NCBI GenBank assembly: GCA_963745075.1
Contig: CAVUWV010000009.1
Coordinates: forward strand, 64,001-128,000
From: Candidatus Hydrogenedentota bacterium
GTDB lineage: Bacteria > Hydrogenedentota > Hydrogenedentia > Hydrogenedentales > SLHB01
Direction of reading: 5' to 3'
DNA: 64,000 nucleotides
The notes below the pieces were generated by a model. The model worked only from the letters and a program-made list of their open reading frames with translations. It was not told the DNA's origin and ran no database searches. The position numbers and the translations under genes are program-made. Positions 44,229 through 52,203 of this stretch are shown here, one piece after another (positions within the stretch are counted from its first letter, which is position 1; each line of letters starts with the position of its first letter).

Positions 44229-44468
44229 ATGAAACAATCCAATATCCACGAAGCGAAGACCCATCTGTCCCGGTTGGTTGAGCGGGTCGCGCAGGGTGAG
44301 GAGATTATCATCGCGAAGGCCGGCAAGCCCATGGCCAAACTGGTTCCCTATCGTGAGGACGAGGGTCCGCGCCAGCCCGGCTACTGGCGCGGCCAGGTTG
44401 AGATTCGGGACGATTTCGACGTTTTGCCCGACGACATCGCGGCGGCTTTTGGCGGCGAGCGACCGTGA
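44229..44468 (+). CDS. Phd/YefM family antitoxin
   Basis: NIHEAKTHLSRLVERV..GEEIIIAKAGKPMAKLVP. Confidence 0.95.
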   Translation: MKQSNIHEAKTHLSRLVERVAQGEEIIIAKAGKPMAKLVPYREDEGPRQPGYWRGQVEIRDDFDVLPDDIAAAFGGERP

Positions 44469-44842
44469 ATCTGCTTCTTGATACGCATACCTTGCTGTGG
44501 TGGCTGGCTGACCACGCGGGACTGTCCGCCGAAGCGCGCGCAATCATTCGTGACTCGAAGGACATGGTCTACGTGAGTGCCGCCACGGCCTGGGAGATTT
44601 CGATCAAGAGAACGCTAGGCAAACTCCGTGCTCCGGATGACCTGGAGGACGCGATTGCCGCAAGCGGATTCCGGGAAATGCCGATTACGATTGGGCACGC
44701 GCTTGCGGCCGGCCAGCTTCCCATGCAACACAGCGATCCATTCGACAGGATGCTAATCGCACAGGCCAAGCTGGAGTCCCTGACGTTGGTCACCCGCGAC
44801 AAGCGCATCCAAAAATACGGAATACCGACCATAGACGCATGA
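44465..44842 (+). CDS. vapC: VapC PIN-domain toxin
   Basis: LLLDTHTLLWW, SAATAWEI, HSDPFDRMLIAQA, LVTRD; GTGA overlap with the antitoxin. Confidence 0.95.
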   Translation: MNLLLDTHTLLWWLADHAGLSAEARAIIRDSKDMVYVSAATAWEISIKRTLGKLRAPDDLEDAIAASGFREMPITIGHALAAGQLPMQHSDPFDRMLIAQAKLESLTLVTRDKRIQKYGIPTIDA

Positions 44843-47598: not shown

Positions 47599-48546
47599 CT
47601 ATCCTTCTTGCGATTCCAGCCAGCGGGATGCGTCGATGGCCGCCCTGCACCCGCTGCCGGCAGCCGTGACGGCTTGACGATAGACCTTGTCCTTCACGTC
47701 ACCCGCGGCGAATACGCCTTCCACATTCGTGTAGGTCGAGTCGGGCTTGGTGATCAAGTATCCGGTTTCATCCATATCGAGCACGTCTTTGAACAAGTCG
47801 GTGTTCGGCTTGTGACCGATGGCCGAGAAATAACCCGCGCAGTCAATTTCGCGGGTTTCGCCGGAATTGACGTCCTTGATGCGAACGCCCGTCACACCGT
47901 TCTTATCGTTCCCCAGAATTTCTTCGACGACGGAGTTCCATTCCACCTGAATCTTCTCATTGGCCAACGCCCGGTCCCCCATGATTTTGCTGGCCCGGAA
48001 CTCATCCCGGCGATGGATGATGTGCACCTTGCTGCCGAAGCCAGCGAGGAAGAGCGCCTCTTCCATGGCGGTATCACCCCCGCCTACCACGACCAGCGGT
48101 TTGTTGCGAAACCGGGGCAGGGCGCCGTCGCACGTTGCGCACGCGGAGACGCCCTTGTTCATGAACTTTTCTTCCGATTCCAGGCCCAGATACCTGGCCG
48201 TGGCGCCCGTGGCGATAATGATCGCCTTGGCCTGCCACGTCTCATCCTTGGCTTTCACCGTAAACGGCCGCTTGGAGAAATCGACCTCGGTGATGGTCTT
48301 CGAGAGGATCTTTGTGCCGAATCGTTGCGCCTGCTTCTTGAATAGATCCATCATTTCCGGCCCGGTCACGCCGTCGGGGAAACCCGGGTAGTTCTCGACC
48401 TCGGTCGTGGTCATGAGTTGCCCCCCGGGCAGCACGTCTTTGCTCAGGGCGCCCTCAAACAGCAGCGGTTCCAGATTGGCGCGCGACGTGTACAGCGCCG
48501 CCGTGTATCCCGCCGGGCCGGAACCGATAATGATGACGTTTTCCAT
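47599..48546 (-). CDS. trxB: thioredoxin reductase
   Basis: [52 protein letters not shown] motifs. Confidence 0.97.
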
Positions 48547-48779: not shown

Positions 48780-48809
48780 TTGACAGAAAGCGAGTGTCCG
48801 TGTTAGTGT
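48780..48809 (+). promoter_or_regulatory. putative promoter of the M4 peptidase/peptide locus
   Basis: TTGACA (48780-48785), 18 nt, TG-extended TAGTGT (48804-48809). Confidence 0.45.
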
Positions 48810-48888: not shown

Positions 48889-50652
48889 ATGAGAAAAGTG
48901 CTATTGGGGGGGTATTCCGGCAACAGTTTCTTTGGGCGGGGGCTTGCGGCGCTGATACTTACGTCAGTGGTAACCATGCTATCTGCTGCGGCGGAAGGCG
49001 TCGAAGCGGATCAGACGGTCGTTGCGTCTACGCTCATCGAGAGTATAGGGGAATTGGCGCCTGATGAGACTCCGCGAATCGCGGTGGACAGTCGGGGCGT
49101 CGTGACCCATTTCGCCGCGCCACGGGGGCACTCGATGAGCGTGGAGGGCGCGTCGCCGGATGACGGCAAGGACCAACGGGCCTTGAAATTCGTGGAAACG
49201 CACGCGCAAGCGCTCGGGCTCGCCAGCGACCGTGTTGGACTGAACGTCCACGCCATCACCACGACCCCGGAACGCTCGTATGTGCGAATCAAACAGCAGT
49301 ACGACGGAATCCCGATCCACGGCGCGGAAATCGTCCTGCAACTCCAGCCGGACGGCACGGTGAAGTCATTTCTGGCGGATATCATGACCGAGACCGCCGC
49401 TCTGGACGCGGACCCGGGGGCCACGGAACCGGGGTTGAACGCGGCCGAAGCCGCCGAGTCCGTCCTGGAAATCGCCAGTGAACGCCTCCAGAAGGCGCAG
49501 GAGAAATACCGGTCCGATGTGACATTGGCGGTCGAATCGGGAGAAATCGACGCGGAAACGGCGCAAGAACACCTCGATCAAGCAAGCGCAGCAGTCGCGG
49601 AGCTTACAGACAACGGCGGACTTCAGATTTACGCGCCGCACGTTATCGGCGATTCCGGCACGAACGCGCTGGTTTGGGTTTTCAAGGTAGATGACACGGC
49701 GGGAATCACGAAACCGGTGCAAATATTTATCGACGCAGATACTGGAGAGTTGGTTCACGTGAATCCACTCGTTGCGGACGCCATAGACAGAAGACTCTAC
49801 GACAATCACCTCAATGGATTGGATGGAATCCCGAATGCGACGCTGCGCCGCACAGAAACGAGTGGTCCGGTGACAATATTCGACACAATCTTTTTTGCCG
49901 ATTTCAATGCCCACTGGGACATTCTTGGATATGTGTACGACTATTTCGATGAGAACCACGGATGGGACGGCTGGGATGGGGTTGGCGGGTCGATATACTC
50001 GTACATACGGTTTGATCTCGTATCCAACGCCGTATGCGATACAGATAACGGTTACATGTGGTTCGGGACAAACGGGATCGCGGTCTCGGACGACGTGGTG
50101 GGACACGAGTTCACACACGCCGTGGTGCACGGCGTGTGTGAACTGCAATACTGGAGACAATCAGGAGCAATCTCAGAATCCTTGGCTGACATGTGGGGCG
50201 AGTTCATTGACTGGTCGTGCCCCGTTTTGGGAAATGATTTGGCGTCAGTGAAGTGGCAAATCGCTGAAACTATCGGAAGTGGACCACTTAGGGACATGCA
50301 GGATCCACACCAACGTCTTCAACCGGACATATATCAGGGCACGTACTGGGTTTACGGGAACGGCCAAATGACAGAAGAGGAAAATGACGTCTTTGTCCAT
50401 ACGAACAGCGGAGTCGGCAACAAACTCGCATATTTGCTCACCGACGGCGACACGTTCAATGGCAGTTTTGTCAGTGGCATGGGGGTAGCGGTAGTTCGCG
50501 ACCTGTATTGGGAAACCGTACAGCTGATGGGAACAAGCTGCAATTACCACGATCTCCATGACCTATTATTGGATGCAGCGGACAATCTAGACCTGACCAC
50601 CGGCCAGGTTGATAACATCCAAGCCGCCTGCGAAGCCGTTGAAATTGACTGA
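48889..50652 (+). CDS. secreted thermolysin-family (M4) zinc metallopeptidase preproprotein
   Basis: Signal peptide, FTP (YVRIKQQYDGIPIHG), PepSY (IFIDADTGE), DVVGHEFTH, QSGAISESLAD, LRDMQDP, VHTNSGVGN. Confidence 0.95.
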   Translation: MRKVLLGGYSGNSFFGRGLAALILTSVVTMLSAAAEGVEADQTVVASTLIESIGELAPDETPRIAVDSRGVVTHFAAPRGHSMSVEGASPDDGKDQRALKFVETHAQALGLASDRVGLNVHAITTTPERSYVRIKQQYDGIPIHGAEIVLQLQPDGTVKSFLADIMTETAALDADPGATEPGLNAAEAAESVLEIASERLQKAQEKYRSDVTLAVESGEIDAETAQEHLDQASAAVAELTDNGGLQIYAPHVIGDSGTNALVWVFKVDDTAGITKPVQIFIDADTGELVHVNPLVADAIDRRLYDNHLNGLDGIPNATLRRTETSGPVTIFDTIFFADFNAHWDILGYVYDYFDENHGWDGWDGVGGSIYSYIRFDLVSNAVCDTDNGYMWFGTNGIAVSDDVVGHEFTHAVVHGVCELQYWRQSGAISESLADMWGEFIDWSCPVLGNDLASVKWQIAETIGSGPLRDMQDPHQRLQPDIYQGTYWVYGNGQMTEEENDVFVHTNSGVGNKLAYLLTDGDTFNGSFVSGMGVAVVRDLYWETVQLMGTSCNYHDLHDLLLDAADNLDLTTGQVDNIQAACEAVEID

Positions 50653-50706
50653 GGCCAAGTGAGGCTCCCATATGATGGCACAGGACAATAGAAAAGGAGT
50701 GATCAC

Positions 50707-50886
50707 ATGTCAAGAATAAGACTCGTGAGCCGGGTTCCCTTCGTCGATCCGTTGCTCCCGGCACCAGCTATTCAAGCGGAAACCCCGAAGGAGCGATACA
50801 AGACCTGTGAAGACGAGCAAACGTCCCTGATAGGCAAGGCCGCCTGCTACCGCACGCTGGTACAGGAGAAACTTACGGGCAAGTAG
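50707..50886 (+). CDS. small peptide P1 (59 aa) MSRIRLVSRVPFVDPLLPAPAIQAETPKERYKTCEDEQTSLIGKAACYRTLVQEKLTGK
   Basis: AAGGAG RBS, translated by hand; paralogous to P2-P5; below the ORF-track cutoff. Confidence 0.88.
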   Translation: MSRIRLVSRVPFVDPLLPAPAIQAETPKERYKTCEDEQTSLIGKAACYRTLVQEKLTGK

Positions 50887-50994
50887 TCCAAACTCACGTT
50901 GAGAATTCTTGGAAAACAGGGGTCGAGTGGCAGTTCTCGTAGAGCGCTGTTCGCTACTTTCTTCAGTACCATGATGAAAGGCAAAGTATTCGCA

Positions 50995-51174
50995 ATGGAT
51001 AGAATTCGAAGCATGAGTCGTGTGCCATTCGTCGAGAATCGCAGGCCCGCCGTGGCGGTCTGGCAAGGGAACGCGGTCACCCACTTGAAGGAGTGTCTCT
51101 CGCACCAGACCACGGTCCGTGGCAAGAAGGAATGCTACGAGACGTACCAGGCGGAGAAAGCTGAGAAGCAGTAA
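50995..51174 (+). CDS. small peptide P2 (59 aa) MDRIRSMSRVPFVENRRPAVAVWQGNAVTHLKECLSHQTTVRGKKECYETYQAEKAEKQ
   Basis: Same leader and C-x12-C spacing as P1; C-terminal part of track ORF 50899-51174. Confidence 0.85.
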   Translation: MDRIRSMSRVPFVENRRPAVAVWQGNAVTHLKECLSHQTTVRGKKECYETYQAEKAEKQ

Positions 51175-51200
51175 CAGGGATTCGTGGTGAGGTATGAGTC

Positions 51201-51380
51201 ATGCATAGAATCAAGTCTGTCAGCCGCATTCCCGTCGCCACACAGCCGCGATACGCGGCGCTTCCCCCTTCTGCATGGGAGCACTACAAGGCTTGTGTAA
51301 ACGAGCAATCGACGTTGGCTGGCAAGAAGGAGTGTTTCCGCAATTATATCGGGGAGCGTTCCGAGGATAAAAACCCATAG
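51201..51380 (+). CDS. small peptide P3 (59 aa) MHRIKSVSRIPVATQPRYAALPPSAWEHYKACVNEQSTLAGKKECFRNYIGERSEDKNP
   Basis: GAGG RBS, translated by hand; paralog of P1; absent from the ORF track. Confidence 0.87.
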   Translation: MHRIKSVSRIPVATQPRYAALPPSAWEHYKACVNEQSTLAGKKECFRNYIGERSEDKNP

Positions 51381-51395
51381 TCTGGAGAGGGTGCG

Positions 51396-51701
51396 ATGTA
51401 CTGGGTGTTCGCGTTTGGCGCAGGTATCGGCGCCAACGGAAACCAGCTCCGCGCTTGGACGCACGCTAATGGTTGCGTGGGCAATAGACTTGCCTATCTA
51501 CTCACGGACGGCGAAACGGTTAACGGGATGGGCGAGTTACCCGTGCGGGAACTTTATTGGGAAACCCTCCAATTGATGCCGGTCGATCCCGATTACAATG
51601 ACTTGTATCAATTGCTTTTAGACGCAGCAGACAATCTCGGTATGTCGCCAGCAGAAGTGAGCAATATCCAGAATGGTTGTGAGGCCGTCGAGATCGACTG
51701 A
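51396..51701 (+). CDS. orphan C-terminal fragment paralogous to the upstream M4 peptidase (101 aa)
   Basis: YWV...THANGCVGNRLAYLLTDG...LYWETLQLM...LLLDAADNL...CEAVEID aligns with the last ~100 aa of 48889-50652; no HExxH; GGAG RBS upstream. Confidence 0.85.
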   Translation: MYWVFAFGAGIGANGNQLRAWTHANGCVGNRLAYLLTDGETVNGMGELPVRELYWETLQLMPVDPDYNDLYQLLLDAADNLGMSPAEVSNIQNGCEAVEID

Positions 51702-51752
51702 GTGCGGAAGTCATTCAACCCAACTTACCTTAACAGAAAAAGGAGTGCTCGA

Positions 51753-51932
51753 ATGCGCAGAATCAAGTCTGTCAGCCGCGCCCCGTTTGCCGGTCCGATT
51801 CCTGCGGCGGCAATCCGGGAGATGGAACCGTGGGAGTACTGGTTGGCCTGTCTGATCAGTCCCCTATCCTGGATAATCGGCATAAAGGGATGCTACTGCT
51901 CCTATAGCCATGATTGGACACAAGAAACTTAG
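51753..51932 (+). CDS. small peptide P4 (59 aa) MRRIKSVSRAPFAGPIPAAAIREMEPWEYWLACLISPLSWIIGIKGCYCSYSHDWTQET
   Basis: AAGGAG RBS; same leader; hydrophobic C-x13-C-x-C core. Confidence 0.87.
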   Translation: MRRIKSVSRAPFAGPIPAAAIREMEPWEYWLACLISPLSWIIGIKGCYCSYSHDWTQET

Positions 51933-52017
51933 GAGGGCTTCGGATACCGGTGCGTCAGCCGCTCGATCGTACACCGGGCGACGGATGGGTGCGGGCGAAA
52001 CGAATGAGATCTCACTG

Positions 52018-52203
52018 ATGGGTAGAATCAAGCGTGTGAGCAGCGTTCCGTTTGTCCATGGTTCGATTCCGGCGCCTGCGGTTTTGCCGGAAACTGATTC
52101 GGAACGCTACAAGGCGTGTCTTGACAAGCAGACCACGCTCGGGGGCAAGGTGGGCTGTTTTGTCGACTATATGATCGCGCTTTCCGACAAGAGCCAACTG
52201 TAG
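52018..52203 (+). CDS. small peptide P5 (61 aa) MGRIKRVSSVPFVHGSIPAPAVLPETDSERYKACLDKQTTLGGKVGCFVDYMIALSDKSQL
   Basis: Same leader and C-x12-C core as P1. Confidence 0.85.
   Translation: MGRIKRVSSVPFVHGSIPAPAVLPETDSERYKACLDKQTTLGGKVGCFVDYMIALSDKSQL

Follow-up and report, generated by a model that had tools for sequence, protein, structure and literature searches.

In a 64,000-nucleotide stretch of a Candidatus Hydrogenedentota genome (assembly GCA_963745075.1, contig CAVUWV010000009.1, positions 64,001 to 128,000; hereafter the window), genes for five peptides of 59 to 61 amino acids (aa), P1 to P5, lie behind a gene for a short protease of the thermolysin family (M4). With the balance of probability modestly in its favour, we propose that P1 to P5 are a satellite precursor cassette of a leader-peptide pathway that is spread across the phylum Hydrogenedentota, resembles those for peptides that are ribosomally synthesized and then post-translationally modified (RiPPs), and would process and export the five peptides in trans. 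Comparisons at the level of sequence demonstrate the layout of the locus, selection on the peptides, the class of their leader, a positioned lysine, the remote machinery and a recurring link to M4 genes. Genomes and contigs are given by our own handles, the genome of the window being G000.

The M4 protease locus and its peptides

All seven open reading frames (ORFs) reported in a preliminary description of the window were found where it had placed them on the forward strand, behind a candidate promoter:

48780..48809, + strand, candidate sigma70-type promoter (TTGACA, 18 nt, TAGTGT; TG precedes the -10 box)
48889..50652, + strand, M4 protease gene, 587 aa, short thermolysin-family preproprotease without a C-terminal extension
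50707..50886, + strand, P1, 59 aa, core type A, C34/K44/C47, leader to about A21
50995..51174, + strand, P2, 59 aa, core type B, C34/K44/C47, weak ribosome-binding site (RBS)
51201..51380, + strand, P3, 59 aa, core type C, C32/K42/C45
51396..51701, + strand, orphan M4 3' end, 101 codons, M4_C only, without HExxH
51753..51932, + strand, P4, 59 aa, core type D (Trp-rich, three Cys), C33/K45/C47/C49
52018..52203, + strand, P5, 61 aa, core type E, C34/K44/C47, weak RBS

P1 to P5 are real genes under purifying selection. Each of the five represents a core type of its own with counterparts in other loci, and across 19 same-type pairs, which are not independent and have synonymous sites near saturation, the cores are 70% identical with a dN/dS of about 0.13, compared with 43% and about 0.30 for the leaders. 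The P1 core is identical to that of its paralog on contig C18 of the same genome at 29 of 31 positions and to the G003 and G005 copies at 26-27 of 38; for P2 the figures run from 22/37 to 32/38 across six same-type copies, for P3 they are 21-24 of 40 in four copies, for P4 18-19 of 37-38 in the C18 and G003 copies, and for P5 30-36 of 40 in G002, G003 and G005. The conserved leader and variable core of the preliminary description are therefore a property of paralogs, the reverse holding between peptides of the same type.

The search for further copies that the preliminary description had suggested was productive. When a hidden Markov model (HMM) of P1 to P5 was run over a six-frame translation of G000, it recovered three extra copies on C18 (E 3e-26 to 6e-16), the next match reaching only E 0.055. 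This second locus (C18:191445-193922) comprises an M4 paralog with 69% identity and three peptides. Its P1-type gene (G000:C18:193755-193913; L001:9756-9914) stops early at a TAG, leaving 52 aa, and its M4 gene carries ATT at the position of the ATG in the others, an in-frame ATG lying a few codons further upstream. Among 41 genomes scanned, arrays were present in four of the five other genomes of the genus (Ca. Hydrogenedentota), with nine copies in G002, 12 in G003, 10 in G005 and one, at a contig end, in G004; the HMM scan found none in G001, of the same genus, or in 35 genomes of other genera. The G003 and G005:C154 arrays sit behind orthologous short M4 genes. The resulting alignment holds 38 members, two fragments having been left out.

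Across the phylum, strong HMM matches were limited to five of 135 genomes, all of this genus, and inspection of eight weak matches (E 0.002-0.05) yielded a single leader-bearing small ORF, at G110:C228. Two genome matches outside the phylum were also weak (E 1e-4 and 2e-4). Protein-library searches added short homologues only (20 matches; 19 of 22 in a representative search), and the named relatives among them are Ca. Hydrogenedentota; the three long representative-search matches (P0035-P0037) were rejected as unrelated repeat proteins and a single metagenome match (L114) as spurious, since it lies in eukaryote-like sequence. A record titled Nitrospiraceae (L048) holds a 74%-identical P5 homolog, reflecting either mislabelling or transfer. 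None of P1 to P5 matched Pfam and none of the 38 members matched NCBIfam; a PDB sequence search gave chance matches only (best E 0.12), and no cluster in the ESM Atlas was informative (best 0.90, without Pfam annotation).

Both Cys columns are invariant in all 38 members. AlphaFold places helices at residues 27-37 and 41-59 of P5, with no secondary structure in the leader and a mean pLDDT of 78, so that the helical hairpin of the preliminary description stands as a predicted helix-turn-helix with two invariant Cys. Fold searches with P5 (Foldseek, VIA) returned generic helix pairs only (Z at most 4.1). The core consensus offered earlier fits P1, P3 and P5; P2 departs from it, and P4 is Trp-rich with another Cys spacing.

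The M4 protein matches PF01447, PF02868 and PF07504 (M4, M4_C and FTP; the FTP match, PF07504, marks the propeptide and has E 5.5e-8), and alignment puts an intact catalytic set in register with thermolysin (HEFTH at 406-410; H406, E407, H410, E430 and H504). Its N-terminus carries a hydrophobic stretch (Kyte-Doolittle value KD11 2.36) that we judged by inspection to be a Sec-type signal, and pN/pS among four orthologs and paralogs is 0.22-0.30. The codons for HExxH are spanned by an inverted repeat whose 17-bp arms match perfectly around a loop of 3 nt (window 50108-50144), and the window M4 reads HAVVHGVC where its relatives mostly read HGV, which suggests a template-switch event; the zinc ligands are intact.

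P1 starts 55 nt past the M4 stop, and M4 and P1 to P5 are presumably carried on one transcript. The candidate promoter could be aligned in five of five upstream regions, with an invariant -35 box, a spacing of 18 and a -10 box of TA[GC][TA]GT, one of the five being that of G002, where most of M4 is deleted; we infer that this element functions as a promoter. A strict promoter and terminator consensus scan of the locus gave nothing above shuffles and did not call it.

Leader class and the remote operon

The pattern given earlier for the leader fits all five peptides. Comparison with small ORFs elsewhere in the phylum shows the array leader to be an Arg-for-His variant of a phylum-wide leader, M-K-H-[IVL]-x-x-[IVL]-[ST]...P-x-x-A (MKH leader), the Pro and Ala of its P-x-x-A end being kept in 35 and 34 of the 38 members. 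In G000, scans with the leader alone turned up about 19 solitary ORFs, 32-71 aa long, with this start or one close to it; their leaders usually end in P-x-x-A and their cores are unrelated. A pattern combining an RBS with the start matches 130 of 135 phylum genomes and also picks up ordinary proteins, although all nine of its matches in G000 are at most 73 aa and eight are MKH peptides. For the same lack of selectivity, a reversed-pattern control was dropped as proof of specificity. Many of the pattern loci sampled are clusters of MKH-type peptides adjoining GNAT genes.

A leader profile built from 59 leader peptides of other genera, with no array member included, was scored on short RBS-bearing ORFs. 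Among 31,991 of these in G000, P4 ranked 26, P3 29, P1 37 and P2 96, and P5, whose RBS did not pass the filter and which was therefore scored on its own, came at about 53; these ranks fall among those of the roughly 19 solitary peptides. In total, 32 of the 38 array members scored above the 99th percentile. Three of the solitary peptides lie in a row (G000:C17:124637, 124920 and 125250, - strand) downstream of what by inspection is an extracytoplasmic function (ECF) sigma/anti-sigma-like pair. Another, of 32 aa (G000:C30:9996, - strand), lies just downstream of a gene that by inspection resembles asparagine synthetase, possibly an extra tailoring enzyme.

The two groups also share a positioned lysine. 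Of the 38 array cores, 29 have a Lys within core positions 20-29 and a hydrophobic residue three positions before it (shuffle mean 8.4, maximum 17), all five window peptides among them, and the same is true of 39 of 55 leader peptides of other genera (shuffle mean 9.3, maximum 19).

The preliminary description had noted no modifying enzyme or transporter next to the peptides. This is correct for the neighbourhood but does not extend to the genome, which encodes the following on another contig:

G000:C20:133685-140571, peptide operon: two MKH peptides, three GNATs, a CPBP protease, an ATP-binding cassette (ABC) exporter and a CteB-like protein

All three GNATs match PF13302/PF13420 only, and the one that was searched is closest to diamine/spermidine N-acetyltransferases. 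The protease is Rce1-like, and the exporter consists of an ABC ATPase and a permease. The CteB-like protein (641 aa) is the only CteB homolog found in G000. Its RiPP recognition element (RRE) and SPASM regions are preserved, the radical-SAM motif CxxxCxxC is missing and its C-terminal end is a GNAT-like domain; it aligns with CteB over the N-terminal RRE and SPASM region (E 1.4e-20) and matches TIGR03974 at E 8e-22, far below the cut-off of that model. The operon was found whole or in part at six of nine other loci examined (G044, G047, G057, G041, G061 and G064), and the CteB-like gene in ten of ten other genomes tested, including all those with arrays. A further SPASM-like protein, about 500 aa long, is present in some genomes (G002:C218:116015-116320; G001:C186:5842-6120; G043:C178:27815-28897); none was found in G000. 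By inspection, plsX-like and fabG-like genes converge on the operon (G000:C20:131482-133534; L104:1483-3535), possibly an acyl-donor link and possibly chance.

Recurrence of the M4 link and growth of the arrays

M4 genes occur in 93 of the 135 phylum genomes and mostly encode long multidomain proteins. We examined every M4 match with an open frame below 750 aa, excluding orphan fragments, together with nine hand-chosen long ones; short candidates that run off their contigs (G046:C21, G084:C44, G098:C138) or lie at contig ends (G025:C563, G121:C187) were not counted. Outside the genus, MKH-leader peptides lie within 2.5 kb downstream of four of the seven short M4 genes with readable downstream DNA, compared with none at 12 long-M4 loci:

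G030:C99, one peptide (family f7)
G106:C88, two peptides (family f1)
G043:C132, six peptides (family f10)
G071:C18, seven peptides (family f3)

The link between peptides and M4 asserted in the preliminary description is thereby extended to a new pairing, of short M4 genes with MKH-leader peptides, in four families outside the genus. The cores at these loci are unlike P1 to P5 and unlike each other, and often Cys-rich, and their leader is the canonical MKH form. At G030:C99 (L115:1623-2019) a TAA splits the M4 gene from a C-terminal domain of about 130 aa, without Pfam match, that is fused in other short M4s.

The orphan M4 end is most likely a tandem-duplication scar and not a component of the system. 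It is 52% identical to the tail of the upstream M4, and the two tails stand about 1050 nt apart in the window. Without HExxH it was ruled out as an enzyme, and its pN/pS of 0.24-0.34 may be left over from when the gene was still whole. Comparable orphans occur in G002 (two M4 tails, 88% identical), in G106 (one orphan half) and in G071 (two extra copies of its own M4 gene end, 92% and 68%), and the order M4, peptides, orphan M4 end, peptides recurs in these three genomes and in G000. The repeated tails and the orphans in four genomes therefore indicate that arrays grow by duplicating the M4 end together with the peptides behind it. An IS200-like transposase (PF01797) lies between the first peptide and the orphan half at G106:C88 (L118:3948-4640). 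In G002 the promoter and the start of M4 are joined to the last 250 or so bases of the gene, with the array intact behind them; M4 is therefore not obligatory.

Both genes flanking the locus lie on the opposite strand; one encodes a thioredoxin reductase and the other the beta subunit of a 2-oxoacid oxidoreductase. The divergent thioredoxin-reductase-like gene (window 47599-48546, - strand) was rejected as an array member because other array loci have different neighbours. Further upstream, inspection points to a likely VapBC-type pair (window 44229-44842, + strand), an antitoxin-like ORF of 79 aa followed by a PIN-domain-like ORF of 125 aa.

Proposed mechanism, alternatives and significance

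In the mechanism that we propose, the leaders of P1 to P5 would be captured in trans by the RRE protein of the C20 operon, a step we regard as likely from its analogy to CteB; a complex prediction for the RRE part (residues 1-95) with P5 scored 0.01 and is evidence neither way. The GNATs might then acylate the conserved Lys at core positions +23 to +25 (K44 in P1, P2 and P5). We put this a little short of an even chance, and suggest it because of the analogy to selidamides and because of the kinship of the searched GNAT to diamine/spermidine acetyltransferases. The peptides lack any hydrophobic stretch of the Sec kind (KD11 0.6-1.4, against 2.36 for M4) and would therefore need a dedicated exporter, and it is fairly probable that the CPBP protease and the ABC transporter would cut and export the core. 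Outside the cell, we narrowly favour a helical hairpin closed by one disulfide, and there the Sec-exported M4 would meet the cores as a co-transcribed extracellular partner. As its role we place first, if only tentatively, the trimming or release of exported cores. On the scale of the phylum, a similarly speculative picture is that of a general line for the lipidation and export of peptides, with a de-radicalised ranthipeptide maturase at its base, in which short M4s would be dedicated extracellular partners, maturing or controlled by cassettes of Cys mini-proteins that grow and swap by way of duplicated M4 ends.

Several observations weigh against the proposal that P1 to P5 are satellites of this pathway with M4 as a partner. 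Six of the 38 array members fall below the 99th percentile of the leader profile; the array leader has Arg where 53 of the 59 training leaders have His, and a longer linker; and the leader test is partly circular because the pattern behind the training set was written after both groups had been seen. The training cores are mostly amphipathic (grand average of hydropathy 0.24) and only five of 55 have two or more Cys, in contrast to the hydrophilic two-Cys cores of the array (-0.85). The positioned lysine is missing in nine of 38 members and, since these are paralogs, the count does not represent 38 independent events. As regards the putative disulfide closure of the hairpin, part of the preliminary description, neither DsbB nor VKOR was found in G000 (assembly 89.7% complete). 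G002 retains eight peptides with intact leaders despite its M4 deletion, and a search of its assembly (93% complete) gave no intact short M4. Three of the seven short-M4 loci are without peptides (G108, G121 and G018:C76; only 2.5 kb could be read at G121 and 1.2 kb at G018:C76), and the 12 long-M4 controls had been chosen by hand from more than 100 matches. Cores that begin with a hydrophobic residue, as would suit a thermolysin-like P1', are common in the array of the genus but do not make up the majority of M4-linked peptides elsewhere. Quick M4 trees, which have long branches, separate the M4s of the genus from the remaining short ones, but the approximately unbiased test did not reject one common short-M4 clade (p 0.18); the M4-peptide link may have arisen once or twice, and a claim of independent origins was dropped.

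Other readings of the same data have to be set beside this one. The peptides could pass through the remote operon and have other cells or surfaces as their targets, in antagonism or signalling, sharing only promoter and timing with M4. The common promoter, the survival of the array after M4 loss, the roughly 19 leader peptides of G000 without a protease neighbour and the several conserved core types, which suggest a panel of targets, are all in keeping with such co-secreted effectors. We nevertheless consider them unlikely, as they leave unexplained the unrelated cores behind short M4s in four families and behind none of the 12 long ones, and the core net charge of +1 to -3 is unlike that of typical cationic bacteriocins. 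A self-contained arrangement of the kind in the preliminary description, independent of the remote operon, with the leader as a propeptide removed by M4 and the cores as unmodified disulfide hairpins, would account for the divergence of the leader from the canonical MKH form. The residue after P-x-x-A is F, V, I, L, M or Y in 30 of 38 members, in line with the specificity of thermolysin. However, the lack of a Sec stretch and of an adjoining exporter would bar the precursors from reaching a secreted M4, the M4-linked peptides of other genera bear the canonical leader, and the Lys position is common to the operon peptides, which together make this reading very improbable.

Somewhat less improbable, though still doubtful, is a protease-inhibitor pair, in which exported and perhaps lipid-anchored hairpins would shield the surface of the producer from its own M4 and the orphan M4 ends would be swappable cassettes, by analogy with the orphan modules of polymorphic toxins. 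The small genes close behind the M4 stop, the strong constraint on the cores and the layout repeated in G000, G002, G106 and G071 accord with it. A precedent exists in protealysin, an intracellular M4 protease with one inhibitor gene, emfourin, in its operon, as described in PMC9505478. The likeness ends with the small gene directly behind the M4 gene, for here M4 carries a signal for Sec, and the 3-12 peptides behind it have leaders and no family match. Furthermore, the M4-linked cores of different genera have no recognisable similarity in spite of a conserved active site; a single target would not call for as many as five to twelve distinct cores per enzyme; the G002 array persists without the enzyme; and no sequence match to inhibitor families was obtained in Pfam or NCBIfam.

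The array works like a RiPP satellite cassette but falls outside the ranthipeptides, selidamides, class II bacteriocins and alpha-hairpinins. A two-helix hairpin with facing Cys, as predicted for P5, may be common to the array and to the alpha-hairpinins of plants (luffin P1, vicilin-buried peptides), which have two nested disulfides (CX3C...CX3C), whereas the array has one Cys pair and only two invariant Cys columns; the structural matches to them were weak (E 1.9-9.9, Z 3.6-3.9) and tied with unrelated helix pairs. Class II bacteriocins have a double-glycine or Sec leader with an adjacent transporter and immunity gene, and the array has no Gly-Gly junction, hydrophobic stretch or nearby transporter. 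Compared with the SCIFF/ranthipeptide pair CteA-CteB, the C20 protein is alike in its N-terminal RRE and SPASM region but lacks CxxxCxxC and has a GNAT-like domain fused to it, and the array peptides have two or three Cys rather than six and lie behind a protease, with the CteB homolog on another contig. The MKH start may resemble the SCIFF leader, but a solitary leader peptide used as query retrieved neither CteA nor anything else.

In CteB (PDB 5WGG) the leader binds the RRE as a beta-strand, as described in PMC6231123. Selidamides, which carry fatty acyl groups on a Lys or Orn side chain, are GNAT-acylated ribosomal lipopeptides made from leader-core precursors, with Lys the likely acyl acceptor, and PMC8784127, which describes them, suggests protease and exporter genes in trans for one cluster. 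It gives them NHLP or Nif11 leaders (with a Gly-Gly junction in two NHLP cases), lanthionine synthetases and PF00583 GNATs. The array and operon are alike in leader-core precursors, GNAT maturases and a candidate acceptor Lys; they differ in the short leader of about 21 aa with its P-x-x-A end and no NHLP or Nif11 match, in GNATs of PF13302/PF13420 and in an operon without LanM. With the Hydrogenedentota MKH-leader operon, which lies in the same genome, the array shares the leader type and the positioned Lys, and differs by Arg for His, a longer linker, hydrophilic two-Cys cores, its remote site and its coupling to M4.

Taken together, our results tie an orphan-looking peptide array to defined enzymes of the same genome and name a candidate modified residue. 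The phylum is uncultured, and we found nothing in print on its peptide products; a literature search, which left most subscription papers outside its reach, likewise brought up no paper about the array peptides or about RiPP maturation with an M4 step. If the operon takes both amphipathic helices and hydrophilic two-Cys hairpins, it would be a very tolerant acylation and export system, useful for making lipopeptides. The recurring protease-peptide pairing would either bring thermolysin-family enzymes into RiPP biology or yield new M4 inhibitors. Should the speculative phylum-wide picture given above hold, it would give RiPP-like routes their first example of a thermolysin-family step, in a two-pathway design that sends the enzyme through Sec and the peptide through an ABC exporter. 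In addition, satellites such as P1 to P5 escape mining that relies on gene neighbourhoods.

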